DNA of 64,000 bases from NCBI GenBank assembly GCA_036172245.1, contig JAYWIR010000031.1, positions 806,001 through 870,000 on the forward strand. Reading direction: 5' to 3'. The notes under the pieces are model-generated. The model saw nothing but the letters and a program-made list of their open reading frames with translations, made no database searches and was not told the DNA's origin. The DNA is from Raillietiella orientalis (Eukaryota). Positions 1-47,470 of the stretch are shown piece after piece (position 1 is the first letter of the stretch; every line of letters begins with the position of its first letter). The position numbers were made by a program, and so were the translations under genes.

Positions 1-1650
1 GTTCAAGTTGCTAATAAATGTCTATAGTAAGTATGATTTTTGATTACTTTATCGTTTACATGTTGTAATGTGTTTGGTAACAAAAAAACCTGATGTATTT
101 GAAACAATATTGCCAGGAACGGAAATTCAAAAAAAAAAGAAGTTTGTAGGGCGTGTTCTGAATTCGCCAGAATCGTAGTTTTATCACCAAAAACCGTAAT
201 CATAACGTTTGTTATGCTGTCTGTATTATCCGTTCCTGTCTTGCAAACGGTAATCCACGACCAAACAGTAATGGATGATGGTGGATCATCGCTTTGTCAA
301 AATTTCTGTCAAAAATTTTAAATGAAAACAAACTTGATTCTTGGTTGCAACTTTGATTTCTTTTTTGGAATGAATTTTTTTTTTTTTATTATTGCATGTA
401 ATTATCCCTGTTTACTATTGATGTCTTTGCCCAGTAGATCAGATGGAGTGTTTTTCTTGCTTATGAGTTTATTAAAAATCTAATCCTTATAACATCCATA
501 GCATGGGATCCGTGAGCCAATCTGCTAAACTTCATAACCAAAAAAGAGTTCAGTAATATTTTATTTCAGCTTTGGGTGGCGTATATTTTCGATATTTTCT
601 AATTGAAACCTCTTTTCATGTCTATATATATATATCACTTCCTTAAGTGCATCTTTGTTTATGTTTTAAATCTATATTTCCATCTTTTCTTTGGCTTATG
701 TATAGTAAATGAGTTTTGGCAATAGTCCTTGCAATCTTAACATAGTTTGTTTAGATGGAATTTAGAAATGATTGTTTGAAAGTTCTTTATGAGATGAGAG
801 AAATGGTAAGCTTGAGGAATTTGATTTTCTGAAAGTATGCAAAGTTTAAAAGGTTCACTTAGAATTAGTGCTTTGCATTTACTTTAGAAAATTCATTTCA
901 CATTTTTACAGTTATACAGCTGTTCATTTATTATGATTCAAATCTTGATAGGTAGTATTTGCAGCATTACAGAGATGATTATATTTCGCGTTTAATTAAT
1001 TCGAGATTTTATGGAATATCCAATTTCACTTTCCTTTTGTGATTATTTTATGGTATTTTTGTAGATTATAGAATATGCTTATATAAGCTTTGGGGAAAAT
1101 AATGTCACCCGTATTTGCTAATAAGCATTATATGCGACTACTGTATTGGTACCGAACACAATTAAAAGTAATGTATTAATGCTAAAAAATTCTCTAGAAA
1201 TCATCTTGTGTGAGTTAAATGTATTTTATTTGTATACATTTGCAAGTTTGGTGTTCTGTGTTTCTTTGCATTCTTTATGTATTCTATTATTTTGTTGTAA
1301 AACGGTTTTTAAAATTTCAATTTTCATAGATTTTTACTTTTGTTGTAAATGTAAAAAGTGATTGGTTATACGTGGATTGCAAACAAAAGTGTTTGTCATT
1401 TGTATGTTCAGTAATGTTTAGCAATGCTTAAATGTTATTCCACATATCTCGCTCCCTGATTTTGTCTCCATGATTTCACTGTATGTTCTTGGTTTTGTTT
1501 CCAGTGATCTTATCTTTATTTATCTTGTTAATGCTTGATTTTGTCATAGTTTGGTGTTGGATATCTCTACAACCTGTGATATGATGTTCCTGTGGGCTCC
1601 TGTGAAATACATGATTACATCAATTGTGTTTCTGCCATCAGTATTTTAAG

Positions 1651-2253
1651 ATGAATAGTTCCCAAATTTCAAGAATGGGTACTACGTTTCCTTGTTGTGT
1701 CTGCAATAGTATTATAGAACTTAGCAATGAGTTGGAGTTGCATCCACTTCTCAATTTGCATACCTGCCTTCCAGGAAGCATGGAATCTGTTAAAAAAAAA
1801 GTCATATCATTGTTCAGCAATGTTGATGTTACATTTGCCAGTGAAGTCATTTGTTCTTGTTGTTTCAATCTTCTGTCCAAGATTGATCAGCTGGAGCAGA
1901 AATTATTGACTGCTAGAGATGACTTCATTAACAAGTTCAATGATACTTTGTATTCCAATGGGCTTCAACCTTTGATTGTTGCTCTGGATATAGACAAATA
2001 TAAGAATCTGGGATTTAATAATAAGGAAAAAACCAGTATTAAAGCTAGAAATATTGGAGAAAAAACTGACAGCTCTCTTTTGGACCTTCCAAAGTCTGAT
2101 GAGTGCTATTTAGAAGAATGTGCTGAAGAACTACTGGATGATGCAGAGTTAAATATTAGTGAACATGAAACACTTGTTTCAGAGGATGATCCTAAAAGGA
2201 AGAGAGGAAGACCTCCAAAAAGAAAACGGGTGAAAGTTGTTAACCAAAACAAG
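1651..2253 (+). CDS. Coding exon 1 of a ZAD (zf-AD-like) / AT-hook / C2H2 zinc-finger transcription factor
   Basis: ATG at 1651 follows the acceptor tttctgccatcag (ends 1641). Two CxxC pairs (FPCCVC...VICSCCFNLLSKIDQLEQKL) have ZAD-like spacing and a trailing helix. AT-hook/NLS KRKRGRPPKRKR. Donor AAG|gtgatt after 2253, phase 0. Confidence 0.85.
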
Positions 2254-4243
2254 GTGATTACAATGACCATATTTGGTCATTTTAATTTTATTAGCATGTG
2301 GGTGTCTAATTGTTTTTCAGTGTCTGTTTCATTTTTATAATGTTTTTGATGTTTTTGCCTTGTAAAATTTTTGTTGTATGTTTTAAGAAATATAAATTAG
2401 CCAACTTCATTGTATGATTGCCTTTTGTGATGAATAGTCATTTTATTTTATATTTGTAATTCTTTATTATTATCATGGTAAGCAAAGAATCTTTCTACAT
2501 AGTAGTATGTTTTTCACCATTGCTAGCCAGTAACCTGTTTTTAAATTTTAATTGTGATGGTATATATCACCTAGAATGCATTTGGTTTTAAAATTTTCAA
2601 GCTGATCATAATAAAGTACAGTGCTAGATTGATCTTTTCTTATAATTATAGGAAGTATCAACTTTAATTTCATTCTAACTTTTCATTTGTTTCTTTTTAA
2701 TCATTGTTTTTGTGATTATTTGGAGTCGACTTATTTTGTTGGTTTAAATCAGAGTGTGATTAAATTTGCTGAAAATGATATTCAGAATTTTGTTCCAGTT
2801 TCCATTTTCATATCAGGACGTAATGCAGTTGAAATTTTTGCATTTTCAAAAAAATGAGGAGTTGTATTGTTTTTTCTTTGTTTTTTTTTATCTATTTTAT
2901 TTTTTTTGCCAAATAAATTGCTGCTACTTACTGCAATGGTTTTCATATGCGAGTAATACTTTGATGAAACCACACAAGTACTGTAAACTGCAAAAGACTC
3001 AAATTTATTTTGAAGTTGGAGCCAAGACCAAATTCTTGTCAAATGCTAAATTCAGCTGCTTCATATAAATGGTTTCTATTTATTAAAGGAAATTTGCTTA
3101 GATTTCCGAAAAGCATAAAGATTTCGATGTCAGAAGGCAATTATCAGGGAGTTTTTGATTTACAGTAATAATATGACATAAACTGTATATGGCCATGAAA
3201 AACAATATCTACAAAATTTCTTTATTTTGTTGCCCCGCATTTTGAATTTTTAGGAGGAAATGAAAAATTTGCTTACAGAATTAGATTGTTCAACCTGCTG
3301 CTTTTATTGATTTGATGCGTTTGTGTGTTTTATTTAGTACATAGTTTTACAATTTGCCATTTTTTATTAGCTTATGTTTGTATGTATGTTTATGTTTGTA
3401 TTCATTTTTGCTTATCATTTTATTTATCCCCAAATTTTGCATTTTGGTGTGCAGAGATTTTGGAAAGTTTTTAACTTATAATTGCAAAAATTCTAATATG
3501 TGGCTTGAAATTCTATGGATTCTTATAAAGATTAAAAGACCATTAATAAAATCATAATTGGTTTTCTATGGTCTTGGCATCCAGGAGAGAAAGTACAATT
3601 CTCTATAAATATTTGACCATTATTGCTCAGTTTATTACCATAAATTGGATGTGTAGAATATTTGGAAAATGAAGTGTTTCAGCACTCTAAACCATTCAAA
3701 CCATTTACTCAATGATTATTTTTGTGTTATTGTTTCCTCAGTGCTTATTGTATGTCAGGCATGTCTGTTGTATGTGAATTTTTTTATTGCATTGTATTTC
3801 TTGATAATTTTGTTTTTTCCATCCCCTCCAAGAAATTGCTCTCATTCGTACAGCCAGACAACAAAGGCATTTTGTGGACATTTGGAAGGCTGAAACAATT
3901 CATGAATACGTGTAGCGAGTTGTCTTGATTGATACCATGTTCGTATGTTCATCTAGGTTAAAACCCCTAGAGCATAATTCTTTTGAGAAAGCGTACATTT
4001 TGATTTCTATATTTTATTCTGAGAATTTAGTCAAACAGCAATAATGAGTAGTGCTTGGTTTCCAGCTTGCAATGCATCATTTGATGAATTAAATCATAAT
4101 TAAACTGGCAATTTGCTACATACATTACTGTAAAATAAATAAAAAGTTAAGCTTTTTGCACATTGATGCCTATATGGTCCACGTTTTTGTAATATTGTGT
4201 TTTTTTTTTTTTTTCTTTTTTTCTTTTTCTCTCCCGTCTCTAG

Positions 4244-5653
4244 AATTTAAGCTTCTCCAGAGAATTGAAAGCAGATGAAGATTCTTCTGGCACTGGTGAG
4301 GATAGTATGAATCAGTTGTATGCAGAACTCAATGGCAAAGATGAGGTAACTGAAATAGAAATGAAAGAAGAGGAAGGAGATTCTCCTTTCCTGAAAGAGT
4401 TTTTGCAAAATAGAAAGGTCTGCCCTTCTTGCAAACGTGTGTTCAGTCGCCCTCGGGATACACTCCGTCATATGTATGGGACTTTATGTCGTAAATGTGG
4501 TGAAAAGGCTCCAGCTACACTTAAGTGTTTTGAGAGTCGCCATTTTGATGGCTCAAGTTTTTTGTGTAAAATCTGTGGGCAAAGCTTTGAGCTTAAATGT
4601 CAATTAGATCAACACATTGAAGCCAATTATCTTAATAGTGAAGGCCGTTATCAGTGCCCAAAGTGTGAGAAAAGCTTCAATATTTATGTGCTATTGGCCT
4701 ATCATTTTGGTATCCATGGTGATGTTGCTTATCGTCATTATCGTTGCTCCCAGTGTGAAGCAGCATTTACTTCCCCAACTGATCTTCGCCATCACATGCA
4801 AAAACATGAAGGTGGTTTTAAATGCAAGATTTGCCCTGAGCAGTTCCCCTCCCTGGGAAAGTGCAAACGCCATTTCAAAAACGAGCATTTTCCTGAGGAT
4901 AATAGCTGCGAGATGTGCGGCAAAAGTTTCTCATCTGCTTGGAGTCTTAAGCTTCACCTTCGTGGTGTTCATGCACAAGAGAAGCTGTATAAATGCAAAT
5001 CTTGCTCTAAGGAATTCGGTCATCAGGGCAATTTTCGGGAGCATATGGCTACTCACAGTGGTCGCAAGCGATTAGTCTGTGATATTTGTGGCTATATGAC
5101 CAACTTCAGTGGAAATATGTCAAAGCATCGTAAACGTCGCCATCTTAAACCACAAGCAGTTCGTACTGAGGAACAAACAACTGCAGTATCTGCTCCAGCT
5201 GCTCCAGTGCATATGAGTACAGCAACTGGTCAAACTGAGTTTCTGACACTGACCACAGTGCCCAGTGGAAGCACATCCCAGGTCAATGTGTATATGGACT
5301 CAACTGATGCCAACAACATTAAGTTGCTAGAGGCTGTTGACTTGGGTGGTGAACGGCCAGTCTACATTTGTCTAGAAAATCTTCAACAGCTACCCCTTTC
5401 ATTAGAAAATTCATTTATGAGTGCTGAGAGTTTGCAATCAGCTTTCGCATTAATAACCCCATCAGAAGACCCAAAAGATGATCAATCCACCCAACAAGAT
5501 TTGGCTACTTTAGCTTTGGTGAAGACTGAGGATTTGGATAAGGATTTGAACTTGTCTGCTTTTAAGCTAGAACTCGGGGATTTTGTTGATCCTCAGTCTG
5601 TAAAACTGGAAGAACCAGTTTGTATGGGACATGTGATTAGTGAATCACCTTGA
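4244..5653 (+). CDS. Coding exon 2 of the same gene: C2H2 zinc-finger array and acidic C-terminal tail (spliced product 670 aa)
   Basis: A long polypyrimidine tract ends in tag at 4243. Phase-0 joining gives ...NQNK|NLSFSRELKADED, in frame with ORF 4265..5653. Six canonical CxxC-x12-H-x3/4-H fingers (CPKC, CSQC, CKIC, CEMC, CKSC, CDIC) follow about three degenerate ones. Stop TGA ends at 5653. Confidence 0.93.
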   Translation, partial: NLSFSRELKADEDSSGTGEDSMNQLYAELNGKDEVTEIEMKEEEGDSPFLKEFLQNRKVCPSCKRVFSRPRDTLRHMYGTLCRKCGEKAPATLKCFESRHFDGSSFLCKICGQSFELKCQLDQHIEANYLNSEGRYQCPKCEKSFNIYVLLAYHFGIHGDVAYRHYRCSQCEAAFTSPTDLRHHMQKHEGGFKCKICPEQFPSLGKCKRHFKNEHFPEDNSCEMCGKSFSSAWSLKLHLRGVHAQEKLYKCKSCSKEFGHQGNFREHMATHSGRKRLVCDICGYMTNFSGNMSKHRKRRHLKPQAVRTEEQTTAVSAPAAPVHMSTATGQTEFLTLTTVPSGSTSQVNVYMDSTDANNIKLLEAVDLGGERPVYICLENLQQLPLSLENSFMSAESLQSAFALITPSEDPKDDQSTQQDLATLALVKTEDLDKDLNLSAFKLELGDFVDPQSVKLEEPVCMGHVISESP

Positions 5654-5948
5654 GTCTTCACAATTGCTAGTCCTTTGTGCAATAATTCACCCTTCCTTAT
5701 TTCCTTATTTATATTTATTAATTATTTCTACTCTGGACCATTCACCCCTAATGTCATGTTCAGCTTAGACCTTTATTGATCTGTTGCTATGCTATGCCAA
5801 ATGTCAATTTAGTCATTGTTGAATCTCAAATGAGTTGCATCTCAATCTAGTCTCTTGTACCTTGCGGATGTTGTTATTTAGATGAAAAAATATATAATTA
5901 ATGGAGATTATGCTGTGTAACTCATTCAGTTGATCTGTGCTTACTGGG

Positions 5949-5954
5949 AATAAA
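5949..5954 (+). promoter_or_regulatory. Candidate polyadenylation signal of the ZAD-ZNF gene
   Basis: AATAAA about 300 nt after the stop, followed by GT-rich sequence. Another AATAAA precedes the A-run near 6530. Confidence 0.35.
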
Positions 5955-8900
5955 AGGAAGGGAGAAAAATTGTGAGTTTCTTAGCTTTTACAGAAGTGTT
6001 TGTAACAGAGTGTGCCGAATTTTTCAAAGCTAGAAGTTTCAAGAAACTGACTGACTATACATGTGTTTCAATAAGATTCACATGGTTTAAATTTGAACTG
6101 GAATCAATCTAAACAATTCTTATGAAGACTAATTCTATTAACACAACGGTTCTATTAACACAACGTTATTTTGTCGTTAAGGAGAGGAGGATTTCTTATG
6201 ATCTAAGTTCACTCAGTATGCTAATGTTAGCCATGATATCAGCAATGAAAATTGATGTTCTCGCAAAGCAAAACTGATTATGTGTTGTCCATAAGTACCT
6301 GAAAGCACTTTAATAGTTGTTCAATACAATGTACATTTCAAGTAGAATTCCTCTTTTAATCAGCATAGACTGGTGTTCAGCTGGATGTATATTCAATGAG
6401 CAAGTTACAGTGGATATTTACTTGTGCCTCTTAGACAGAAATATTAAACTTAGTTGCTACCATGTTGTGATCCATTTAGCACGTATCCTGCAGTGTTTAT
6501 TAAGCCCTTTGAAGTTATTGGATATGCAATAAAAAAAAAAAAAAAAAAAAAAAAGTCTCAGCATTTGGTATTAGAACTTTTTAAAAAAACAAAAAATACG
6601 AAAATTAGTTCATGTAACCAATGTTTTTTGGGAACTATGCTTCCATAACTATCTGATGGGACCATCTGCCAGCAAACTATGTGAATCTCTGGTATCCTAT
6701 TTGATGAAACCAATCATGTAAGTTCAGATATGTATAAAACCTTGCTCTGTTCACTTGGCAGTGATTATTACAAATGAATTCCTAGTTATCTTTGAGTCAT
6801 GTTTATGAGTATAAACGATTCATTTCTTTGCTCAGGATTTGCAATTCCGAAGTAAATTCATTTTTAATTGTAAAATTATGTTGGAAAGTGGTTTTTCCTT
6901 TGTGGCAATGTGCAGAGTTGAAATTTGTTAGTGCAAATACAAATGATACTCTCCATATTTCAAATTTATCAGTTTTTTAGGTATCCATTTATAAATTAGG
7001 GCTACGCAATTGTGTTGCAGTTTTGAACAGAGTTTTGACGAGTGGAAAGTAAATTGTTTTTTTTTTTTTGCTTTCAAGCCATTACTGTATTAACGTGTGG
7101 GGTTTTGCTGTTTGACTTTGGTGGTTTGCGGTGTTTTGAGAAATACTTTTCCTCATTACGAATGTTCCGTCGTGGGAGAACATTCGTTTTCTTTTGTACC
7201 GACCTCAGCTGGCGGCATCCCGCGTTGACGTTGACTTGCTTACTTCCCATCCCTGATCAGACCGTAGTTTTGGTTTCCACGTCGATCACAGAGTGAATTC
7301 ATTAAAGTAAGCATCAGGAAGTCCCGCCAAACCACATGACAACGAAACATCTGTTAAGGGGGTTCCCCAAATTGGGAGAATCAGGTGGTTGCGAAAGACC
7401 AGTGGCATCCTTGCGAAATTTAGCACGTTCCCCGCGATATGTGGTGAGCGAGAAGCTGCACAGTTAGATGGTGGTGAATCCAAAGCTCTCATCAGCATCT
7501 CACATCTCCACAAGTCCGAAGTGGTAGCTTAAGGCTTCTCATTTCGCCGAGAAGCAAATTGGGTTTTAACGTGTCGTTGTGAGTTTTCCGTTGAGCGTGC
7601 GTTTTGGTCGAAGGGACCTTCACTGCGAGAATCGGATTCGATGTCTTTGTAAAACATCGGATCTCGGGATCGAGATGTTTGCTGAGCCCCGGGCCGTGTC
7701 GCCACCAAGTAACATTCGGAAAGTTCCCGGAAGTGGGTTTCTCTTCGTCGGTGGCGGCGGCCGGGCAGCGCCATCGGACTTGCGCGAGGTGCTTTTGCAG
7801 GTGGGAAAGTTGTGGCTCCTATCTGCCTCGTTTGGGAATTTTCAACTGGCAGGGATTTTCCATTCCGCGTTGAGGTGGGGGTGAGTTTCAGTTTCCCCTT
7901 TCGTTCCTTCGCGTGGTACAGCCGATCTTTGGGGATAAGATTTCCATTACGTTCTCGGTGATTTGAAACTGCTTAGAAGGATCTCTTGAGGTGTGCTTCG
8001 CTCACGTGTACTGATGTACAAGAAAGATGGTCGTGTAGTTGCGGGCAACAAGTTGTCTGAAACGTTTGCTTTCGTATGGTGCTAGTGAAGTTCCTTTGAT
8101 CATTAAGTAATGTTGATTAGGAGTGCATAGGATACACGAAATTGTTTTTCCTTCTGCCGGTAGAATTCGGTCTTTTTCTGTATAATTGGTTTGCACGAGT
8201 CGCCGCACGTAATGTCTAAAAAGTGCTCGTAAACTGCGCACATTTTTCTTATACGTAGATATGTATACATATACAATGAAAAAAAATCTAATCTGATGAA
8301 CCTCGAATATCTATCGATGTGTTCATATCGATAGTAGTCGACCAGTTCGATACATTGGTAGAAGATTAGAATGTTTTTCAAAAAGCTTGCCATGAAAAGA
8401 GAAAAAAAAAAAAAAAAATCAAGAATTGCTCACGATCCATTTTCGGAGAGACATGTATTCTACTTGTACCAACTTAAAAGTTACTGCAGCGAGCAAGTAC
8501 CGTTTTTGTTCCATTGAAATAACCTGCGGGATTGTGAATTTGAACTTTTAGCTTAGGAAGATCACGAAGTGGAAGCATCCACAGATGAAATACAGTTTAT
8601 CTCTAGGAAAGCAGTCCTAAATTTTAGCAATATAGAATATGATTAGAATTATGATTTATTATTTTTCGAGGAACTAGTAATGGCAGTTTGATTTAGTGGT
8701 TTCTTCTATTTCATTCAGCTTTAATTTCATGGCATTCTATGCGTTGGTTGTGTGTCCTTCGTGCAAGTGAGCGAGGATGGCATACCGTTGCAGAAGAAGG
8801 CTCTAAAACTTACATATGGGTATCGTGGCACATCAGAAAAAGTGAACACCGGGATCATAGCCTTCCGTTAAGTCAGCTAATGGAGATAGGAACAGTAATT

Positions 8901-13288: not shown

Positions 13289-13363
13289 TCAGTTTCTGCC
13301 GGAGTGTTCGAACCCGCGACGCATGGTGCCACGCGCGGAAGTCTTAACCGCAAAGCCTCCGAC
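13289..13363 (-). mobile_element. Solo tRNA-like head of the SINE-like family (copy D)
   Basis: Close match to 54605-54680 (cagtttctgc.ggagt.ttcgaaccc.cga.gcatggtgccacgcgcggaag.cttaacc.caaagcctcc). The minus strand reads an A-box-like GCTTTGCGGTTAAG and a B-box GGTTCGAAC. Confidence 0.75.
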
Positions 13364-16680: not shown

Positions 16681-17974
16681 TACGTAAATCAAGTCTCGCG
16701 GGATGTGGATTTCACTTCTGAGTAACAACTGTGCATCAGGAAGTCGAAGACGTTTGAATTGAAATGGAAAAACAAGTTGCCGGGGATTTTCCTTTCCTGA
16801 TTGCAAAAAGATTCTCCTGATGCACGTTTGATGCGCGAGAGTTTTAGTGATATGTGGTCAAACGGCAAAATGAAGAGCAATCTGATATCATCACACTTAG
16901 AAGATGCTTATCAGGGAAGACCTCTTTCATTCTTGATAAGCAGCATCGGTGATGAAGACTTCAGCAAGGGGATCAAAAAACTGGCACCCATTTGCAATAT
17001 ACATTGACGGCATGATTAGCAAATTCCTTGATACCGAACTGAACGTGCATAAAAAATGGGACGTGCAGAAAACTTCACTCAAGGACTAAAAGATGTGACG
17101 TGTTCTCTCTACCAGATGTGGGATGCTGGAAGGGAATTCAGTCGATCTTCCATGGATACGCGTTTTCTTTTTTTTCAATATTTTTCAAAGCATCATCACA
17201 ATGTGAATGGTCCTTTGCAACAGCTAATGTGTGTGTCTGAGCAATCCGACCCTTTTTACTCTTCTCCGAAGAGACTACCTCTTATCCGTGTTTGCATTTA
17301 CGCGTGATACAGACGATGACACGTTCGCAGCACATCGAGGTCTCGGGTTCCAATCGACAGCGTGTCGTAACGTTTCACGAGGCTCCTCCATGTTTCACTC
17401 GGGCACGAGATAGCACGGGAGTTTCGCACATTCCTCCTTCCATTCGAAAACACCATAGAGGGGAAACGCCTCTGAAAAATCTGGCATCCCTGAGAGCTTT
17501 TCAAGCTACGAGTTGATCGTAGTAACGGATCCGCTACCCGCTTATAACAAGGTCGTTGCTGCGTGCACTATCAACTCACGTCCGGCATCATATCCCCCGA
17601 AGATCACCGTTCTTTTTCTTTTTTTCCTCCCCTCTTCTGATACGTTCTTTGAGCTCCGTATGATCCTTCGCCAATGCTCTCTTACCCATCACCATGGGTA
17701 CTCATTATTCTTGGCATGAGTGATAAACCTCATGCACAGTTATTTGTCCTGTTTCACGAAGGCTCCTCTTTGAGGCTTGCTTTGTTTTCAAATGGGATTG
17801 CTCTGCTTGCATGACCTTTTATTTTTTTTCATCTCGAAGGTCAGCAGCGTCCTAACGAGAGGGTCGCTACTATTGGCCTAGGACGACGGAAATCCTTTCA
17901 TCAGGGTTCGCCGAGATACTCAGGAACCGTACTTAGAAACGGGCCCTCGACGATTCTTTCACACTTCGGGAGGA

Positions 17975-18975
17975 CTGTCAGCCTCACCTGAGGGTGCGTA
18001 GAACTCAGACAGATCCCGACGGACCACCCCAATGGATGCAGCCCCCTTCTTCTCTGGCTCTTCCTCTCCTTGGATGCCTCCGAAGCGAACCTCTTCCTTG
18101 CCCTCCCCGACGGAAACTCCCGAAGGGGACCCGGAAGGGATTTGCTCTCGATTTCTTCTCTGGAGGGAACCCGCAAGAGAACTGCTGCTTCATTGCTCCT
18201 CTGAAGATCTCTCCCTGAAGGGAACAGCATGCTCCCAGTACTCTGGAGAGGCATTCATTTCTCCGAGAAAGGTTAACTAGCTCCATGGTACGCGACAGAA
18301 TGTCTCCCCGAGGGGAGGGTCGATCCCATTTGCACAACTGGGGGTGGAGGGGAGTCCTGAATGGAACTGCCCCCCCCTTGGTTTCTGGCAGGACCCCGGA
18401 CAGTCAACTTTCAATCTTGGCCAGTCAACTGAAGTCCAAACTGAAGGACGGATCGACTGCGCTCCACATTGCCTGCAGAAGAAACAACTGGCGACTCGTA
18501 AAGCTTCTGGTTGGCTTCCAGGCTGATGTGAGCGCCAAGGACGCCAATGGGATCACCCCCCTTCAGATAGCTACCCTACAAGGGAACCTCAAGCTCATGA
18601 AACTCCTCTTGGATTGCAAGGCGGAAGTGGATGCCATGAACTGTCTCGGAACGACCGCGCTTCATATTGCTTCTGCCGATTCCGGGAGCTCACTGGCAGA
18701 ACTGCTTCTGCAGTACGGAGCGGATGTCAACGTGAAGAGGACGCTGGACGGATCGACTGCACTTCACATTGCTACAAGCGGCAGACGGTTTCTCGCCAGT
18801 TCCGCACCCAAAATATAGGCCGACCAGAGCTATCCTGTGGAATTGGAAAGGAGGGGAAGAGGAATCGAAACGCATTTCCCATTCTCGGCGCCGCCTCTTC
18901 CCCGGGCGGGATTCGAACCAGCGACGATTGGTTTCGCGTGCGGCAGCCGCAGCCACGCGGCTGCCATACGCAGGC
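17975..18975 (-). mobile_element. SINE-like GC-rich repeat, copy A, interrupted by an ankyrin cassette
   Basis: Body motifs shared with copies B/C (atttcttctc.ggagggaacccg, agctccatggtac, catttgcacaac). A tRNA-like head at about 18869-18975 has a minus-strand B-box GGTTCGAATCC and aligns with 22474-22580. Confidence 0.7.
18285..18818 (+). CDS. Ankyrin-repeat ORF (3 full repeats and 1 partial; 177 aa) whose termini derive from the surrounding repeat
   Basis: DGSTALHIAC...LVKLLVGFQADVSAKD, NGITPLQIA...LMKLLLDCKAEVDA, LGTTALHIA...LAELLLQYGADVNVK and DGSTALHIA, with no internal stops. The domain call is secure, but functional gene status is uncertain. Confidence 0.7.
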   Translation: MVRDRMSPRGEGRSHLHNWGWRGVLNGTAPPLVSGRTPDSQLSILASQLKSKLKDGSTALHIACRRNNWRLVKLLVGFQADVSAKDANGITPLQIATLQGNLKLMKLLLDCKAEVDAMNCLGTTALHIASADSGSSLAELLLQYGADVNVKRTLDGSTALHIATSGRRFLASSAPKI

Positions 18976-20721
18976 TCGTCAGGGCATCTCCCGTCTCCCT
19001 TTTTTACGTTCCAGGACCGAGCTGTGGACAAGTTTCTATAGATTATATACAGGGATCATAAACTTGCTCCCCCTAAGAGTGACGACGTCGGCTCCCAAAG
19101 CCAACACCGCGTGGCTTTTTCATCGAACTCTGTTCCCCCCCCCACCCCTCTTCCCCCATTCCTGAAGAAACGTCCCTCGAGAAGGTCATTCGTCTTCCCC
19201 GTCGCTTAGAAGAGGGGGGCAACTCGTCCTCATCCAACGGGCACATCCCCAGCTCCAGCCCCGCCACTGGGAACCGGCGCGCCCTTTCGCCGCGGGACCC
19301 GGTGTGGGGAGGACCGGAAAAAGTGGGGCGAAGCTTCTGATCGGTCGAAAGTCCGCGCCACGTCACTCTGCGGAGGCAGAGCGTGCCGAAATGGCGGTAG
19401 GTGGTCCCTCCGAAGCGGCCCGCCCCCTCAGTGAGCCCAGCCGAGAGCGAAATGCCCGAGGTCGCTGGCAGGTTTCCTTGAATCGCAGATCCTGGCGTTG
19501 TCTTTCCTTGATAAGCAGTGAATTTTCAGGACGCTCCGTCGGGAGTACCGTTTCTGGTTCTTCCGGAACGTTTCCTGAACGATGCAGCTCCCTTCTCCGT
19601 TTTGCTGGTCAATGGCGGGGGATTCCCGGAAGACCCCCACTCCCGAGAATTCTGTTCTTGGAGACCACGAGGTGCTCACGAGCTTGAATGGGATCCCCGC
19701 TACAGAAGCCCCGGGAATCCCCTCCATTGCCAGCTGCGTTGCTCTTCTCTTCTCCGGAAGCGTGCAGAGGCTCTCGGGAACCTCACTGTAAAAAGGGGAG
19801 GAAGGAGGGGTGACCTCCGTGACCGAAAACGAGGAGGGTCGGTGCACGCCAGGGACCGAAGCATGCAACGACCATCGGGCGTTGGGGGGGGGGGAGGTTG
19901 AGTCGGATTCTCGAAGGCCTTTGCGGAAGAAAAAGATGGGTCAGTAATCTCGGGATGCCCGAAAAGTTCTCTCCAGCTTCTGTTTTCCCCCAACCCTTCA
20001 GGGAGAGTTTAGGCGAGCATTGGTCTGGATGGCCTTCCGGGAAGACTGCTGCGAAAGTGAATGGCAGCAAGGAAAACGCAGCCGAGTTTCTTACATTTCC
20101 CGAAGCTCCCGTGCCGGAATTTTCACAATTAGAGGAACCAAAAGGAACGACCTACCCCACCACCACCACTGGGGGTGGAACAAGGGAGTAAGAGGGAGGA
20201 TTGGTAAGTCAGTATGGAGGTGGGCGGCCCGGCCTCATCTCAATGAGCATGAATTCCCGAGTTGGCAAGGGTGAGGAAGGAGGGCAAAGGGGATCGGGTA
20301 TGCTCCCTGGCTTCGGGTCAATCTGCCCACAGCCCCTTGCACTTCGCATTCCAGACCGGACCGCTCCCAACGCTCTCCGCAAGCAAGCGGTGACTGATCT
20401 CTGGCTTCTCCGTGGGATGGAGGTTGCATCCACCTTTCATTCGTACGCGACCACCACTTCTCGTACATAGAGGAGGGTCGCTACCGAGGGGGAGAGCGGT
20501 AAGCCTCGGAGGCGAAACGAATCTTTTGTTCAGCCTGCCGATCATGCCTGTGGCACCTGACGAAGAGTTCCCCCTACCCCGTAGTGGGTGCATTCCAGGA
20601 TCCTCGGTTCTTCATCTCGGAACAAGGGCGCTCACGGAAGGACTCCGTGAGCGCCTGCGGCAAGCCAAGCATGACGAGTTTCAGTCTGAGGCGGTGTGCG
20701 AGTCACAGGCACTCGGAGACA

Positions 20722-20749
20722 CTCCTCGGCCCTTTGGCTAAGATCAGAG
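20722..20749 (+). pseudogene. U2: 5' fragment of U2 snRNA (3'-truncated)
   Basis: ctcctcggccctttggctaagatca matches the conserved U2 5' end CTTCTCGGCCTTTTGGCTAAGATCA at 23 of 25 nt. Similarity stops before the GTAGTA branch-point pairing motif. Confidence 0.75.
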
Positions 20750-21274
20750 GTCACTTCGGTTCACGGACTACCTCCCCATCCGTGCCGACGACTCATCTTC
20801 TCTTCCTGTGCGTGAAGCGGCCATGGATTCACCGGAGGATTGCTCTTGTGGGAGATGTGGACTGCAGACTCGCATGCGAGAGCCGCTGCACGAAGCATTC
20901 TTTTTAGGCGCGCTGCCAGGCGGGATGCCACCGCAGGAAGCCTCCGCGATACCTCTACCGTCACAGCAGGATGGAAGATGATGTCAACGAACCAGCGCGT
21001 CCCCGGAGCAAGAGCACACCGACTTACGTCCGGAACCGACAAAGGCGACCAGAAGGGCGACTGCCTGGCAATGCTGAAAGTTGTCTGCCATTTGAAAATG
21101 AAGAGACGGCCTTCAGCCCTGCCAGGCACCAAAAGAGGATCCAAGGATTAAGGCATTGCCCTTTCAGATGAATCGAAAAGGATCAACAGCGAGAGTCCAC
21201 GCCTCTAGAATTGGTTCTTTACTTTTTGGAGGCTCGCGTAGCTCTTTAATACTGTTCCACGCCAGCGAGAGTGC

Positions 21275-21790
21275 TCCCCAACTCTTCAAACTGGGGGCAC
21301 CCAGCAGGGGACGACCTTATGAATCCAGGAAGGGACTCCGGAGGAAGGAGGCCGTTCCTCTCCCCAAGGGAGTCTCTTGCTTATTTCCTCCGGAGGTTAC
21401 CACATGATTATTTCTATTCCGAAGGGAACCTAGAAAGGATCCTCTCCTGGAATTTCTGCTCCGGAGGGAACCCGAAACTTTGTTTCCTCCTCTGAAGAGA
21501 ACCCCGAAGGGACGTCTCCGAATTTTTTCTAAAGGGTTACTACCCGAAGAGGGAGCAGCACACTTCTTCACACTCTGAAGAGGTATTGATCCATCAGCTC
21601 CATGGTACCAAATGGAATGAGTTCCCCCCAAGGGGCGGAGGCGGCGTCATTTGCACAACCAGGGTGGAACCTCGAAGGTAACCGGCTCCTTGATTCTGAT
21701 TCCTGAAAGGATCCTAGAGGGTCGACCTCCAGTCCCGGCCATTCATCGGGGGCGTCCGGGGGTTTCCGGCTTTCACCAGTGCCACCGTCT
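21275..21790 (-). mobile_element. SINE-like GC-rich repeat, copy B body
   Basis: tttctattccgaagggaacc.agaaaggatcctctcctggaatttct.ctcc.gagggaacccg is nearly identical to about 54077-54140. ttcatcgggggc.tccggg is shared with about 54499. Confidence 0.85.
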
Positions 21791-22290
21791 TCAGAGTGCA
21801 CTACAGGCGCTCGGCGCGTTCCAAAGAGGCATGCAGGAATGGGCCGTGGTTTGGAGCGCCTTCGTGTCCCCTCCTTCTCCCCCTGATTTCTGTTTGCCCC
21901 CCTCCATGCAGCATTAGAAAGCGGACGAAGGACCTCCTACGGATCGTCCTCTGGGGCAAAGGGAGACCCGGAGTCCGCCTGAAAGACTTGTGCGCCCCCC
22001 TCAGGAACAGTGGCCCAGACCTCCTCCTGACGCTGGAGCAGATGGAGATGCAGCTCTAGCTTTAGACAATTGTCCTCGTGGCAAACCTCTGGAGCACCAC
22101 CTGGTTCCAGCCTACACGTGTCCTCGTCCGAGAAGCCTCCAGAAGGGTGGGACTCGCGTCCTTCCTTGCGTGGCCGTCCACGAAGTCTCATCCACTGAGG
22201 ACTGCATCTTCGGCAGGCGACCAAGGAATTTTTCAATCATAGAAGGATTCATCCAGAGGGACTTCTCGAGCTCCATGCAGGATGCTTAGT
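21790..22290 (+). mobile_element. Internal fragment of an L1/Tx1-type non-LTR retrotransposon ORF2 (post-RT/thumb region), decayed
   Basis: With a frameshift it reads AVVWSAFV/CPLLLPLISVCPPPCSIRKRTKDLLRIVLWGKGRPGVRLKDLCAPLRNSG, matching the L1-clade PP...FLW.gkrp.v....L..P...GG segment. Stops follow. Confidence 0.6.
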
Positions 22291-22404
22291 TCAGGTTTCA
22301 TTGCATTTACTACGTGCGTCTCTGGTAAACAGGAGGCTTGTGAGGTGGTGGAATGAACGACAGCCTGTTAATTTTTTATAAATAAATGTCCTGGCGTGAC
22401 CGGG

Positions 22405-22580
22405 TGTCAACCAGTGTCACCTCACCCCAATAGGAAAACCAGCTTCATACTGCGAGGAAAAAACGAAATCCACGACGCACTCCCCATTTCTCGGCGTCGA
22501 CGCTTTTCCGGGAAGGATTCGAACCCGCGACGCTTGGTACCACGAGCAGAGACCTCAGCCACGCGGCCTCCAGCGCGGGC
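22405..22580 (-). mobile_element. tRNA-like head and linker of the SINE-like family (probably the displaced head of copy B)
   Basis: The minus strand reads GCCCGCGCTGGAGGCCGCGTGGCTGAGG...GGGTTCGAATCC. It aligns with 54556-54685, including caaccag.g.cac and acgacgca. Confidence 0.75.
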
Positions 22581-23394
22581 GAGATAGAATTAGTTCTGCT
22601 GAGATGTCGGGATCCGAACACTGGTAGAGTCTTCCGTGACTTAGGAGTTCCTAAGCTGCGCATTGCCAAAAAAAATATGAGGTAGCTGATAATTGCCTCG
22701 TGTATCTCATGCAGTCCGAGATGTTTGCTGGCTTAGGCATACACCGGGCGATCCAGACGACTTGAAGAAGGATGCCACGAGAGACGGGATGGATGGGCCG
22801 GAAACAGAAGATTATCACCACGAGGAACGTTTTCAAGAGACAATCCACTGTTTACAGGAATCCTGGGTCAAGGTGGAGTCTTCCGAAGCATTCAGCTGAA
22901 GGCATTTCGCCATCCTGGAAGCAAACAAAGGAACGCGCATCCATGGCAACCAAAGTTTCGTGATAATCACACTCTATCAAAGATCCTGATGAAGTATGAT
23001 TTTACCGAAGTTATCGCGAGGGACTATGCGGAACCCTCAGGCATGCCGAGATCGACTCGAGACAGCCAGAGACGGGAAAACATCCAAAGAGGAGAGAGAA
23101 AGAAGGAGAAATCCGAGAGGGAAGAGATTCCTGGATTCTGAACGGGAAAGATGGCTCGAAAAGTATCTCTGTCGAGTTTGCTTCGGTTCCCGAAAAGCTG
23201 CGAAGAAGGTTTGGACGCAAGGAGAAGCTTCCACAAGGAAGGGAGAATCCTACGGGAGAGGCGACGGCATCGAGCTCACCGAAAGCGATGAGTAGCTCTG
23301 TGTCCCTCCTCGCCTGCGGGAATCACGCAGGCGTCCGAAGGGAGGCTAGGTGAGGCGAGTGCATCACGAGTTGATCAAAATCTCTAGAGCGTCT

Positions 23395-23481
23395 TGTGTA
23401 TTAGCCACGATGATTGGGTTTCCGTCCACGGCTGCGAGGAGCCGCATCCCTTTTCCCCCCTACTGTTAGAAGAGGTGGTCC
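23395..23481 (-). ncRNA. Degenerate HDV-like ribozyme motif
   Basis: The minus strand has GGACCAC...GGC-UCCUCGCA-GCC-GUGGAC-GG...GCUAA, i.e. P3/L3, the P1 3' strand, the P1.1 GG and J4/2 in HDV order. P1 has a mismatch and no convincing P2 partner is present. Confidence 0.4.
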
Positions 23482-23649
23482 AGTTCGAGGGTCCGAGGAG
23501 AAAGGACTCCACCCGGTTAGAGTCGGGACTTTGGAAAAGTGAGAGGTGAGGCCCATGCTTCGCCCATAGCGTGGGAAATCCTCAGGGGAAGAGCAAGTCC
23601 AAGTTGCGGTGGTTGCGGTGGTGGTCTTCTCCTTGGAGAGGCTCGACCG

Positions 23650-24015
23650 GGCATGGAACACCCAATAGCACTCAGGTACGGTGTTCCTCGAGCGTAGCCG
23701 CACAATCCGGGGAGCAGCTGTGCCCCTAGAAAGATCCATTTCACAAAACGCGGAGGGGTAGGGAGCGCACTCGATGCTTCTCGTACCCTGGATCAGCAAG
23801 ATTCTTTCCTGCAGCTCTTTGGGAAAATTCCTTAGCAGCAAAGACCGTGTAGAATTTGGAAGGTCTGCTTCTCGTAGGCTGGACAGAGTGCAAATCCGAC
23901 ACTTTACCTTTTTCGTGTCTGTTGGGCTTGTTCGTGTTCAGCAGTTGGGTCCACATGACTGACCACGGATTCTTCTGTTCCAGGGCCAAGGCACGCATCA
24001 GAGGAATTGCATTGT
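23650..24015 (-). mobile_element. Possible second decayed non-LTR ORF2 C-terminus
   Basis: Across frameshifts: PWSVMWTQLLNTNKP / EKVKCRICT / QTFQILHGLC, resembling a W...L.T...CxxC...H...C knuckle region. Heavily degraded. Confidence 0.28.
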
Positions 24016-39224: not shown

Positions 39225-40614
39225 TCACCCGCTCACGGATCTCTTGCACAGCCTACGATTCAGATGAACGAATGTGCGCGTTTCCGTTGCTCGTGGGCGC
39301 CATTCCATGGTGCCCCCAGTGCTGCACTCGTTTTGCATTCCGTGACGCGAGCGCCTCTTTTCCTCCCGCCGCTGAACCCTGGCGAAGTTCGGCGGTTGCC
39401 CGTATTCTGCAAAAAAGTCAGCTGTCTTCCTGGGGCTGACCTTAAGTACAGCAGGCTCCCGCATAACGCGGAGATACGCCCCGCGTTGTACGCGCCCTGT
39501 GGGTTATACATGGACAATGCAGGAGTGTTGATGAAAGACATAAAGTGTATCTTAAAACGTTATGACAGAGGAACATCTTTTATCTAAATTGAAACAAGGA
39601 AAAAGGAAAAATCGAGTGTTTACTGATTATTTAACTTGAGGCGGGAAAGAAAAAAATAAAAAAATAAAAAGAAGCTTTAAGGGTTCTGCTGCTATTTAAT
39701 CAGCTCAAGCAATTCTGTAATTTCAGCTCTATAGTTCTTTTTGCTTAATACTGTGCCATTTTCATTTACGAAAATTCCAGCAAAATAAAATTAACCTACT
39801 TAAAATCACGTGTTTGTGTCCTTTTCAAGAACGACTGAACCCACGCTGCACCACAGAATTAAAATTTAGCCACAAGCGTGGTACGCAGCTGATTCACTGC
39901 GTTTTACGAGGAATGGAGCCATTTTTTTTTGTGTATGTGCCACCGTGTTGTACGGGGGGTCTACCGTACTTCCATGGGAGGCAGATGATTTCTCCACAGA
40001 TCGCATAGCTCTTTCATGGACGCAGCATCTCCCGATTTCCACGCGAAGAGGTCGTGGACGCACGGCTGCTCATTGCGAAACGCTGCATGTGGTGGTGGTC
40101 CTGGAGTGAAATGCATCTCCCTGTTTGCGTCGCCGTAAGCTGGGCAATTCTTCAAGGCACTGCTCAAGGAAGACTCAGGGAATCTCCACAACGGTTTCCA
40201 AGGGACAGGCTGGTTACAGTTACCAAAGCAGGAAGTCACACCCCCAGAAGATCGTGCCAAGAAGGAAACTTGGGGGAGAACGCGAGGAGAGTGCGATCTC
40301 TCGATTTCGAAGAGCGGCGGAAAAAGCACCCGCGCTGGAGGGTGGAGCAGAGCAACTTTCGAAAGCAGCGGCGTCAGCTGAACTTCTGATTCATCTTCCA
40401 AAGGGACGGGTTCGGAGGAAGGAGCTATCTGACTCGAGGCTAATCGCTGGTGCCAAGCAACTCTGGCAGCCGCGCTCCTCACAGAGTCCGACGTGCGCTC
40501 ATCTGCGCATCGGTCGGCATGGGAAACGTGGCAGATCGTTGCATCGCCACCCGAATCCAGAAGAGCACCTCTGCGTACAGGAAGCGGTGGGCAGGGTCGA
40601 TAAATCAGTGCCAC
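39225..40614 (-). pseudogene. Unidentified reading frame interrupted by the MITE
   Basis: ORF 39961..40614 stops inside the right TIR. Removing the MITE plus one TA joins ...NHLPPMEV to LKVSPRKTADFFAEYG... (frame of ORF 39225..39464). No domain recognised. Confidence 0.3.
39449..39966. mobile_element. pogo/Tigger-like non-autonomous DNA transposon (MITE), about 518 bp, with TA target duplication
   Basis: Left end TA|CAGCAGGCTCCCGCATAACGCGG. Reverse complement of the right end TA|CGGTAGACCCCCCGTACAACACGG. They differ only by transitions and one indel. Internal sub-terminal copies occur (ccgcgttgtacg at 39481, ctgcgttttacg at about 39897), and the interior is AT-rich and non-coding. Confidence 0.75.
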
Positions 40615-41096
40615 AAGCGTTCAGGTGGTGCAGCTTTCTTGGAAAACCGCTTTCCTCAGTCTTCTCTCTCTCTCTTTTTCCTTTTTCTCTTCCTTTTTTT
40701 TTTTTTTTTGCGATAGTTTTTCCGATTTGCCGCGGCCGCCATTTTTCCAGTAAGCCGACCGCCTCCCCGCACGACGAAGTTTTCTGAAGAGGGCACGAAT
40801 TAAAACGAAAGAGACGCGCGCATAATTATAAGGTTGGGGAAATCGTAGGGAAGAGATGTTGTTACTGTTACGCAATTTGCACCCTGACTACGAAAGCCAC
40901 TGACCAGCGTGAAGAGCTGGGAAGACTGGATTTTGCACTTGCTGGTGTCCAGGAGTAGGAGGAAATCCACATGTCTAGCAGCAACAGAATGCCCTCACCA
41001 GTGGGCGAAGATTGGGACATTCATACAAGGAAGTCCACGCAGGGGAAATATGACCCTCAGCTACTCCGTGATTGACCCTTACATCTCTGTACTTAC

Positions 41097-43664
41097 CCGG
41101 TAGTGTGTTCAGTTTCTTCTTCCGTGTTTTGATTTCAGCCAAAAGGTCGAGAAGCGATCTTAGTCACAAGACTTTTTCTTCTGTGCGGAGGGTTTGGTCC
41201 GTCGGGGTCGCATCTCTGTATGTATGGGGAAGCCTCCAAGAGAAGGGGAGTGCTCTCTGCACGGCGAGGCGAGACGATGCAGTTTGCCTTCTCAGCAGCC
41301 TCTTTGGAAGTCAATACGTGGCGGCAGGGGGTGGGAGATGCGAGGAACAGATTCTGGATTCTGGCTTGCCATCAGAGCTGTGGCCCAAGTTCTCTTTGCG
41401 AGCGCTTCGGGAAGCCGTCGCTGCGTTCCTCGGATGCTGTGAGGTAGCTGAGAGGAAGCAGCTAGAACACAGGAGCCTTCTCTGACCAGAAACAGGCGGA
41501 TGGTTTGGGGTCACATGGGATCTGAATTTCGAAGGGAGCGGGGTACCCGAAGAGGACCCAGCCTATCAGCGCACCGGCGCGGAGAATCCGAGTGGGCTAA
41601 AGGGACGGTCCTCATGACGGATTCGGCTGCAGCGGTTTGGAAGTCTTGAACGTGCCATCGTGGTCTGCAAGAAACACCGTTCGGCGATGCAGTCCAGAGT
41701 TTGAGGTGACTTTTCGCTTCCCTTCCTCGTGAGAACAGGCCGACGCATTGGGGAAGGCCCTCCTACAGTGCTTCCCGTACGCTTCCCGTAAGCTGCAGCA
41801 CGCGCGCCAGGCTGCTCATGCTCGGCATCCTGAAAGTTTTCGGCTGCTGCGCGGCTCGTGCGGAGCCGGTGCGCGACCCGTCGACCTATGGTTTCGCTGA
41901 GCGGATGCAGCGCCCGGGATCTTTGTGCCCTGGGCGTACAAAAAACGGCGTGACTGCTGGCTCTTAGGCGCGCGTTCTCAGCTGCTTGCAGATCGGCCAG
42001 CGTGCTCGACGCCGCTGGTGGAGAAGGACTCGTCCTCCTCCGCGTCCAGGAACGGCCACCTCCGCCAGTACCGAGCAAAGAACTCGAAGTCCCGGTCTCG
42101 AAGTTAATTGCCCTGCTTGCAGACCGCTTTGAGAAGGGCAGCTGCTTCCGGGTCGTCCCTCGGAAGGACCGAGGGTTCCCAGGGAGTGAAGGGAAAGGCG
42201 GAAGGGAGCCTCTCGCTCCGAGGTGTCCGGGAAGCAGCGTGCGGACGGCTGCTGGAAGTTCGGTTCCTTCTTCGCTCTCCTCGACGGTTCCGTCGCTGCA
42301 CATCCCGGTGGCCGCGGGCACATGGCCGTCCGATCCCCGGAAGGATTTCTGCTACGCGAGCTTATCGCCAACCTTTGTGACTTGGCACAGGGATCTGCGA
42401 CTCGATCCAAGGTTGCCCGCCCGCTGTCCATTGTTCCCGGAACGCCGGAGGAGTTCCGGGAAAGAGAGCAGGAAGAGGGATCAAAGAGGAGAGCTCGCGA
42501 GGCAAAAGAGGAGCCTGTGCGCGCCATCGAAGATCGACGGGGTCCTTGCATTCTTGCTTCGTCGAGGGAAAAGCAGGAGGAGGAGGAGAACTGGCCGATG
42601 GCATCGGGAGGGAGGCTAGCGGTGGGCCCCCCTGGCGCTTGCGGTTTTGGTGGCACAGTGCCGCCGGCCACGTCACGTACTTCCACGGACGACGGTGCTT
42701 TTGCTTCCGCGCGAGAGGATTTGGTCCGTCGAGGTCGCATCGCCCTCAACGTTAGCGCAGCAACGGCAGATTCCGCGTGGGAAGAATTCAACTTCCTTAC
42801 CCTGCCCTCCTCCTCCTCCTTCTCCTCCTTATACTCCACTTCCTTGCTGCAAGGGCGCAGGAAGGGAGGACAATGGCAGCCGTGCCGGAGAGCGCGCGTC
42901 CTTCGACGGCGGTCGGCGCGCCTCTAGCGGAGGTCTCCGGCATCAGACGAGCGCTCCCTCGCTGTCAGACCCTCTCGAGCGAGAGGGGAGAGAGCCAAGG
43001 GGCCAGCCTCGCTGCTGCCGCATGCTGCTGCGGGCAGGAGCCTTCGTCGTACCAGGAAGAACCTCAAGGAAGGAGGGAACGAGGAAGGGAGCGGTGACTC
43101 GGGGAGGGGGGGAGGACAACCGAAGAATGCCAGGACGGTTGTTTCCTTGCCTCGAGGCAAGGATGGAAGGTCCGCTACGCTACGGCTGCTACCGCAGCCT
43201 TCCCGAGAGACCTTTCACGCTCCGCTGCTTCCCTCGGCTGCGTTGCGTCCCCCTTCGCGGAACCGAGGCGGCGCTTCCGTCAATTCCAGAGGCTCCGCGG
43301 TCGCCTAGTCAACCCAAGGTTCGGCGGTGGCTCCCCCGCCGAACCTTGGTGGCTTCGCGCTGTCTCGACCGCTGGCGTTTCCCTCGGCGGAGGCCATTGA
43401 GGCGACCTGGTGCGTAGCGAACGGTGGCTGTCCGGGTGTGCCAGGAAAAAAAAAGCGGTCCGCGACCACCTTCGAGTCCCGCCACTTCCTCGGCGGCGGT
43501 TGTTCCGCCGCCGGGGGCGCGGCTGCCTCGTCCTTCGTCATTTTCTCCGGCAGCTGCATAGCGACGTCAGTGGTTCTTCCCTTTTCCGCTTCGGGCGCTC
43601 CTTGCCCTCTTCGCTCCTGCCCCTTAGTGGATGCCACGTCTGCTGCCTGAGGCGCTACAAGTCT
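41097..43664 (-). other. GC-rich, coding-like low-complexity region (possible decayed or fast-evolving exons)
   Basis: Long overlapping ORFs on both strands, a minus-strand acceptor near 43664 and a donor gtaagt near 41096. In-frame stops interrupt plausible frames. No domain recognised. Confidence 0.2.
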
Positions 43665-44216
43665 CTGGAGCGAATGCGAGGGATGGTGCAAAGATCAGCG
43701 CCCTCGCTCACGCCTTGGAGACGGAAGAAGAAAAAACACACACACTCTCTCTCTTTCTCCGTTGCCAAGAGCGGATCGTTCCTCTTTCCTGCTTCCTCTC
43801 GCTCGCTTTCTTCGTCTTCCTTCTCCCCACGGCAAAAGCAGAAAGACACCCCTACAGCCACCCCATCCGGATAGCCAATCCACCACGAGCTCAGCTTCCG
43901 GGGAGCCCTGTCTGGGGAGTCTCGCGTTCCGACAACCGCCCTGAGGGGTTTATTGCTGCTTGTCCTCGTGGCTGCGCGTGGCAGGAGAAGAGCACGCCAA
44001 GTGACCAGAAGCGGTGGTGGCAGAGAGGTACGGTCCGTTCTCCGGAAAGCGCCTGCTCGCCCCCGGAGCGAGCACCACCCTTCCGTCCCCCGAAGGCAGG
44101 AGGAGGAGGAAAAGGACGTGAGGGTGTGGGCAGAGCGAGTGACCACCGTGGGGTGGAGAGGGGATCTTCTCTTCCTTCCTCGTTCTTCCACTCTACCCTG
44201 TTTTTCTATTTCCCAG

Positions 44217-47149: not shown

Positions 47150-47470
47150 AAATAAACACATGTACTAACTCTACTCTACGCATAGGTATCCAGGGACATT
47201 ACAGATAAAGGATTATAAGAAAATAAATCTTCATTATATGTATTTGTTATATGCATTTGTAATATATTTACGCACATTTATGCGTACATATATGTATTTA
47301 TCTCATCCGGACAACAACTTTTCAATTATATTAATAAAATGTATGTCCCTGAATCTTAATCAATATATCCGCTGCAATAATATAACTGTTAATAAATATG
47401 AATAGATATGCATATTAAAATAAATTTCCATATCAATCTATGTAGAATAAGCACGTGTGTTTATTTTTGC
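47150..47470. repeat. AT-rich dispersed repeat island related to 16200-16680
   Basis: Same shared words as the 16 kb island, in permuted order. Confidence 0.5.

Follow-up and report, generated by a model that had tools for sequence, protein, structure and literature searches.

How a stop-free stretch of ankyrin-repeat coding sequence came to lie inside a repeat copy, in frame with an ATG that the repeat supplies, is the question raised by this locus. An earlier note on the same DNA had proposed either the capture of a gene fragment by a non-autonomous retroelement or a nascent chimeric gene. We analysed the locus within the whole 64-kb stretch of DNA in which it lies (the window), which is animal nuclear DNA by appearance. 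Pfam matches elsewhere in the window mark a C2H2 zinc-finger ORF (4244-5653), two VWC-domain ORFs (51245-52101) and a reverse-transcriptase remnant (61031-61543). The zinc-finger ORF had 15 protein matches at E ≤1e-30, which were generic relatives only, with at most 32% identity. The Atlas returned clusters of Chordata or Arthropoda. The observed/expected ratio of CpG was 0.3-0.5 across the zinc-finger gene and 0.7-1.1 nearly everywhere else in the window. This mosaic pattern suggests an invertebrate-like genome.

The ankyrin segment is located in a block between 18 and 24 kb with a GC content of 53-58%, where numerous ORFs of at least 120 aa occur in several frames. One of these, an ORF of 212 aa at 18527-19165, overlaps the ankyrin frame in another frame and has no Pfam match. 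Nor was any Pfam match found in 88 other ORFs of at least 90 aa between 7.5 and 32.6 kb. In the GC-rich block around the ankyrin segment, a long open frame is nothing unusual.

The stop-free frame starts at 18219 on the plus strand and comprises 199 codons, followed by TAG at 18816-18818. Its first in-frame ATG is at 18285, inside agctccATGgtac, and the ORF from this ATG to the stop has 177 codons. Residues from about 71 to 190 of the frame matched the Pfam family Ank in three stretches, with an E-value of 5e-25 and 86.6 bits (cut-off 21.1), and the same residues matched Ank_2 with an E-value of 1.3e-22 and 80.5 bits (cut-off 27.3). The curated cut-offs of both ankyrin-repeat families (PF00023 and PF12796) were thus exceeded, and the ankyrin identity of the segment is firm, as is the stop-free cassette in a repeat copy that the earlier note had described. 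The translated repeats read DGSTALHIA..., NGITPLQIA..., LGTTALHIA... and DGSTALHIATSG. They resemble ankyrin-repeat proteins (PF00023, PF12796) in having 3.5 canonical repeats of 33-36 residues with the TALHIA/TPLQIA and LL..GA(D/E)V motifs, but differ from them in that the array is truncated and has no capping repeats. AlphaFold2 run without an alignment on the 177-residue ORF gave an uninformative mean pLDDT of 48.5; the fold class is settled already by the Pfam match.

The Pfam match, the gap in a profile of the repeat (18430-18792) and the GC content at codon positions delimit the ankyrin-coding insert as 18424-18792 on the plus strand. It opens with the tail of one repeat, continues through three full repeats and ends with the first 13 residues of the next, which correspond to the first helix. 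The part that is clearly coding is the core at 18438-18785, and the outer limits are accurate only to about 5-15 nt. Within the core, the GC content at codon positions 1, 2 and 3 is 0.59, 0.43 and 0.62, which is coding-like, whereas the corresponding values are a flat 0.53, 0.56 and 0.58 in 18219-18437. This upstream part of the frame consists of 73 codons of GC-rich repeat, and the stop lies 10 codons past the ankyrin part. Coding periodicity is confined to the insert, and the repeat-derived 5′ part of the ORF has no coding signal.

Our analysis also showed an internal period of 300 nt in the insert. Its second copy, at 18725-18772 on the plus strand, matches 18424-18472, a score reached by 0 of 1000 shuffles. 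Of the 27 nt in the 9-codon core of the period copies, which encodes DGSTALHIA, 24 are identical, and the three codons that differ are all synonymous. Other pairs of repeats within the insert share 14-21 of 27 nt. Since the first and fourth cores differ by synonymous changes only, they would fit divergence inside a functional donor before copying, and the pattern as a whole fits a putative donor gene with a three-repeat (300-nt) super-period, whose units diverged under purifying selection. We also considered an origin of the 300-nt period by a rolling circle or a circular RNA, which is unlikely because the core copies differ only synonymously. The insert begins and stops inside repeats and is therefore a truncated internal piece, which fits about 1.2 periods taken from the middle of a presumed array.

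No donor or close relative of the insert was found in the protein databases searched. Among proteins of 109-349 aa, 715 matched at E ≤1e-3, and the best identity was about 42-46% among the 120 listed. With identities no higher than these, no orthologue or parent of the insert can be named. Longer proteins gave 4298 matches at E ≤1e-20, with at most 39% identity among the 120 listed. Ankyrins with 24 repeats made up most of this second list, and scoring was confined to the 8000 candidates with the most shared words, so a shorter and closer donor may be hidden behind them. Within the 64-kb window, tblastn at E-values up to 10 found no other ankyrin match.

The repeat around the insert was characterised by repeat finding and self-BLAST of the window, which gave three long copies and one head-only copy, all on the minus strand. 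Copy A (about 18080-18986, from the profile and blastn) is the one interrupted by the ankyrin insert, and is divided by it into a body arm (18080-18429) and a head arm (18793-18986). Copy B spans 21240-22586, with arms at 21240-21785 and from about 22401/22437 to 22586. Copy C (53837-54694) is a short form of about 850 nt that carries no insert, and copy D (13289-13363) consists of no more than a 75-nt head module, which shares 91% identity with that of copy C. Copy A is 60-79% identical to copies B and C, so that it is quite diverged, as had been remarked before; B and C are 68-91% identical to each other block by block. Exact-pattern scans of metagenome and viral contigs gave no match to the repeat outside the window. 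The agctccATGgtac motif with its ATG recurs in copy B (ATG at 21602), a correspondence already pointed out in the earlier note and visible in the sequence, and is not kept in copy C.

The repeat had been described as tRNA-headed and SINE-like. ARAGORN at default settings called no tRNA, and Rfam gave no family at gathering level and no tRNA match at E-values up to 10 (13-23 kb). When the thresholds were relaxed to 85%, ARAGORN called the heads of copies A and B (two of the four heads) on the minus strand, at c[18897,18986] and c[22504,22586], among 10 calls in the whole window. The head of copy B was called as tRNA-Leu-like, and the head of copy A (about 18897-18986) contains GGTTCGAATCC at 18909-18919. 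At 80% thresholds (-ps80), and only there, the head of copy C was called as well, as Leu at c[54608,54694], among 46 calls. With two to three of the four heads (90 nt each) called in this way, on one strand throughout, the number is far above background. In addition, all copies carry, near their right-hand end, a minus-strand sequence of the GGTTCGAA type, and we take GGTTCGAA(T/A/C)CC on this strand to be B-box-like. The head is plausibly a decayed derivative of a class II tRNA, as far as such sequence features can tell.

The other marks of a SINE were not found on these copies. No direct repeats of at least 9 nt exist between the flanks of A, B or C, and those of B and C share single 8-mers only. 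No copy has a clear 3′ tail; on the minus strand, 17821-17834 is A-rich, about 250 nt past the point where the homology of copy A is last detectable. Copies of tRNA-derived SINEs are usually shorter than about 600 nt. The heads were called tRNA-like at relaxed thresholds only, neither target-site duplications nor a clear tail were found and the uninterrupted copy C has a length of about 850 nt, so the repeat deserves the label SINE-like at most. A gene-capturing DNA transposon of the Pack-MULE or Helitron type was also considered: as to terminal inverted repeats, none bound any copy, and the only two inverted pairs in the window sit elsewhere. With its tRNA-like head on the minus strand, the element runs opposite to the ankyrin frame, which is thus antisense to it.

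A profile built from copy C and from copy B without its insert was run against copy A with nhmmer, and gave three matches: model positions 310-541 at 18080-18264 (E 1.2e-11), 609-813 at 18245-18429 (E 4e-12) and 839-1009 at 18793-18974 (E 5e-15). The three matches are colinear. Between the last two, 25 model positions (814-838, corresponding to 54505-54529 in copy C) are missing, against 363 nt in copy A. The insert thus maps between 54504 and 54530 of copy C, which has about 25 nt at this place, as expected from the earlier statement that nothing corresponds to the insert there. The earlier note had also placed the end of repeat homology near 18437 and its return near 18787. Colinear arms bear this out, with limits at 18424/18438 on the left and 18785/18792 on the right.

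The left junction is firm: for 18380-18445, none of 1000 shuffles reached the score against B or C, and 18380-18427 can be aligned to both as far as GGCCAGTCA. On the right, the arm is firm from 18851 onwards (blastn), and the segment 18774-18850 taken alone is marginal, as 47 of 1000 shuffles reach its score against copy C and 269 of 1000 against copy B. The stop codon had been regarded as derived from the repeat. The profile arm includes it, starting from 18793, but homology is certain only from 18851; given the marginal homology of 18793-18850, the stop at 18816-18818 is probably, not certainly, repeat-derived.

Whether the two flanks come from independent repeat copies was a possibility raised in the earlier note. 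The arms have the same orientation and are nearly contiguous in the consensus, and they therefore represent one interrupted copy, not two independent copies. The same arrangement bears on a possible assembly error, in which reads of an ankyrin gene and of the repeat would have been joined into a chimera. Repeats are places where assemblies are prone to error, though there is no direct evidence for an error here; both junctions lie inside one colinear copy, and a misjoin is not expected to return to that copy 25 nt further on. We regard an assembly artefact as very improbable.

It also bears on the reading of the segment as an ordinary spliced exon of a larger ankyrin gene, whose other exons would lie beyond the window and in which the similarity of the flanks to the repeat would be that of intronic repeat sequence. 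The intact cassette and its coding composition agree with an exon, and an AG at 18424, where the sequence ggccag ends, follows a moderately pyrimidine-rich stretch. Such an exon, however, must fall exactly in the 25-nt gap of one colinear repeat copy, and it would stop in the middle of an ankyrin repeat. By eye, no good GT donor is found past the ankyrin part (acg|gtttct, 18786-18787), and no further ankyrin exon occurs in the 18 kb upstream or the 45 kb downstream. The CpG observed/expected ratio is 0.8 here, against a depleted gene body at 1-6 kb. A spliced exon is a distinctly unlikely explanation.

The ends of the insert give further indications of its origin. At the left junction, the octamer aactgaag occurs twice (18427-18434 and 18439-18446, plus strand), the duplication that the earlier note had seen. 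GTCA at 18424-18427 is common to the repeat homology and to the homology of the 300-nt period, and is a possible microhomology of 3-4 nt. Neither end of the insert carries an A-run, and AATAAA and ATTAAA are both absent from the plus strand between 18 and 20 kb. No direct repeat marks a target-site duplication around the insert; GCCAGT, which is present on either side, was rejected as one because its two occurrences align to different consensus positions.

These features do not fit a processed retrocopy, a LINE-mediated insertion or transport by the repeat. A processed retrocopy (class 1) is opposed by an internal fragment that ends inside a repeat and has neither an A-tail nor a target-site duplication. 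On the other hand, Onozawa and Aplan (PMC5110952) recognise class 2 templated insertions by a microdeletion, by microhomology and by the lack of target-site duplications and poly(A). They describe them as patches of distant sequence (DNA or cDNA, possibly copied from RNA) at double-strand breaks mended by end joining. Neither a target-site duplication nor a poly(A) tract or signal accompanies the insert, which shows a microdeletion and the GTCA overlap. In the microdeletion, the short overlap or duplication at the junction, and the absence of target-site duplications and poly(A), it is like these class 2 insertions. It differs from them in that a distant template is a defining feature there and the insert here is known without a donor. 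Those insertions are human, moreover, and the present one is an old event in an invertebrate-like animal, with a blurred right junction.

The absence of a target-site duplication and of poly(A), the microdeletion of about 25 nt, the overlap and duplication at the junction and the double truncation of the fragment together favour an origin of the class 2 type. As the leading explanation, to which we give about an even chance, we propose a templated insertion of the break-repair type, in which an internal coding fragment entered an old repeat copy and the extension of its open frame was fortuitous. On this view, a fragment of some 360 nt from the interior of an ankyrin-repeat coding sequence would have been inserted into the already resident copy A, replacing about 25 nt of it, in antisense orientation to the tRNA-like head. 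The fragment would have served as a patch of distant sequence, possibly copied from RNA, when a double-strand break was mended by end joining. By chance, the frame would have remained open through the repeat, which happened to supply an ATG. The repair mechanism is inferred from the junction features of one old locus, and the insertion would have taken place later than the integration of the repeat. Against repair stand the lack of a donor among the proteins searched, the poor definition of the right junction (47 of 1000 shuffles) and the insert nearby in copy B, which may reflect some general property of the element rather than two accidents.

The decay of the cassette was simulated in a simple way, either with substitutions alone or, as an alternative, with an assumed indel rate of one tenth. 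Of the simulated cassettes, 34% were still free of stops at 10% substitutions, a figure that dropped to 9% at 25%; with indels, the proportion was 1% at 10%. The intactness of the cassette, in a host copy that shares only 60-79% identity with B and C, leaves two options: an insert of far lower age than copy A, or one under constraint, which would argue for function.

The earlier note had compared copy A with copy B, a comparison that is not clean: copy B has an insert of its own, unrelated to the ankyrin segment and a few tens of bases away from it in the consensus. The insert of copy B extends from 21786 to about 22400-22436 (about 620-650 nt) and falls between 54539 and 54557 of copy C. The ankyrin insert showed no relation to it (z -0.5), to the middle part of copy C (z 0.8) or to any sequence elsewhere in the window. 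We considered the B insert as a second gene fragment and rejected it, as each of its six frames is broken by stops and Pfam gave no match.

The two insertion sites raise the possibility that a mobile subfamily carries and spreads the ankyrin segment as cargo. Foreign sequence would have entered at a point 50-100 nt behind the head, for instance when the reverse transcriptase switched templates, and copy B would carry another cargo there. Two of the three long copies do have unrelated inserts, both 50-100 nt behind the head and 11-50 consensus positions apart. By a rough estimate, two random hits would fall that close in an 850-nt element in about 8% of cases, so the closeness of the two sites is suggestive, not significant. 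The head is also found as a separate module in copy D, which makes the family look modular. Against mobile cargo, the ankyrin insert is present in one copy only and in none of the three other copies in the window, and the scans of metagenome and viral contigs gave no external copy. The copied RNA would need to have been an antisense transcript, as the ankyrin sequence is antisense to the element. Two switches would be needed, out and back to a nearly identical point. On the element strand, TTTT (window positions 18810-18813) lies between the head and the insert. Transport as mobile cargo is therefore an unlikely account of the ankyrin segment, and the earlier proposal of capture by a non-autonomous retroelement, in the sense that the element carried and spread it, is not supported, given these observations and the absence of poly(A) and a target-site duplication.

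In SVA elements, the acquired sequence is at the 5′ end, in the sense orientation of the element. It is common to the whole subfamily there, in contrast to the ankyrin insert, which is internal, antisense and confined to one copy; an SVA-like transduction is thus opposed by cargo that is missing from the other three copies in the window and antisense to the head. The likeness is that SVA elements with MAST2 exon sequence (PMC6139936) are non-autonomous retroelements carrying a gene fragment, that is, a host coding fragment inside a non-autonomous, SINE-related element.

Chimeras formed by template switching have both parts in one orientation, a poly(A) tail and target-site duplications. The shared orientation, the poly(A) and the duplications are all absent from copy A. 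What copy A has in common with them is a small pol III-type module joined to mRNA-derived sequence, as in the U6/L1 and tRNA-mRNA chimeras attributed to LINE reverse transcriptase (PMC4476161; bioRxiv 10.1101/2025.02.02.635956).

The remaining question is whether the locus may be a nascent chimeric gene, which is compatible with any mechanism of insertion. The repeat would then provide the start codon and the 5′ part, the cassette a folded domain, and the ORF at 18285-18818 would be transcribed and translated. The frame of 177 codons from ATG to stop is intact, the ankyrin repeats are well preserved according to Pfam, and the cassette has stayed open inside an old host repeat. However, the 5′ part has no coding periodicity, and the last ankyrin repeat is cut after its first helix. 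The frame that starts from the ATG at 21602 in copy B ends after 34 codons, as read by eye, and no poly(A) signal occurs on the plus strand within 1.2 kb downstream. Long ORFs with no Pfam match are also frequent in the block, including the overlapping one of 212 aa. From these sequence features, a nascent chimeric gene seems improbable; most likely, the 177-codon ORF is fortuitous and the fragment non-functional. The interpretation of the earlier note was half right, in that an insertion into one repeat copy did take place, but no evidence was found of capture and propagation by the repeat, or of a gene.

A bolder reading joins the insertion site to the ORF: the repeat family would have a preferred entry point for foreign sequence 50-100 nt behind its tRNA-like head, taken by the ankyrin fragment in copy A and by about 640 nt of unrelated sequence in copy B, and in copy A this would have led to a young intact ORF with a repeat-supplied start codon and an ankyrin domain of 3.5 repeats. 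We regard this combination as doubtful, with only a slight chance of being correct. If both parts of it were true, they would represent a SINE-borne route to new chimeric proteins.

In the ordinary reading, that of a repair patch, the locus is a further pseudogenic gene fragment produced by DNA repair, with no wider consequence, and it illustrates that a captured domain can by accident obtain a start codon and an open frame from a repeat. Should the same insert recur in other copies of the repeat, the family would be a rare SINE-like element with protein-coding cargo. Should the ORF be expressed, the locus would exemplify domain capture as a source of new genes.

The long copies of the SINE-like repeat, A (~18080–18986), B (~21240–22586) and C (~53837–54694), all lie on the minus strand and carry a tRNA-like head near the right-hand end. 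Our analysis also showed a copy consisting of the head alone (D, 13289–13363), which has 91% identity to the head of copy C. This suggests that the head may form a distinct, younger module within the family. The head of copy A contains a perfect 9-bp hairpin at 18942–18965, with arms GGCAGCCGC and GCGGCTGCC and the loop agccac, which is private to this copy and absent from copies B and C. Copy C contains a 48-nt stretch that is 92% palindromic (54170–54217), and another palindromic stretch of ~350 nt, 60% self-complementary, was found at 47133–47483.

Copy B is interrupted by an insert of ~620–650 nt (21786–22436), unrelated to the ankyrin coding fragment inserted in copy A (~18424–18792, + strand). 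The two insertion sites are near each other within the repeat. All six frames of the copy B insert are broken by stops, no match to it was found in Pfam, and an AATAAA is present at 22381–22386, close to its right end.

Two blocks, 18001–24000 and 40001–46000, are GC-rich (53–63% GC, against 40% in their surroundings), and many of their frames hold long ORFs. The blocks may represent clusters of repeats, promoters or another kind of sequence. Among the ORFs scanned against Pfam in these blocks (only one, 43875–44891, in 40001–46000), the ankyrin cassette was the only one to match. On the + strand, two ORFs matching the von Willebrand type C domain (51245–52101; E 1.4e-6 and 5e-3) are probably exons of a single gene, and a remnant at 61031–61543 is similar to a reverse transcriptase zinc-binding region (zf-RVT, E 9e-4).

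At the start of the window lies a zinc-finger gene (ORFs 1615–2340 and 4244–5653). The paired-cysteine motifs of ORF 1615–2340, as judged by eye, recall a ZAD domain, although this ORF had no match in Pfam. The CpG observed/expected ratio is 0.3–0.5 in this gene (window 1–6000) and 0.7–1.1 in nearly all of the window outside it, a mosaic resembling invertebrate gene-body methylation.
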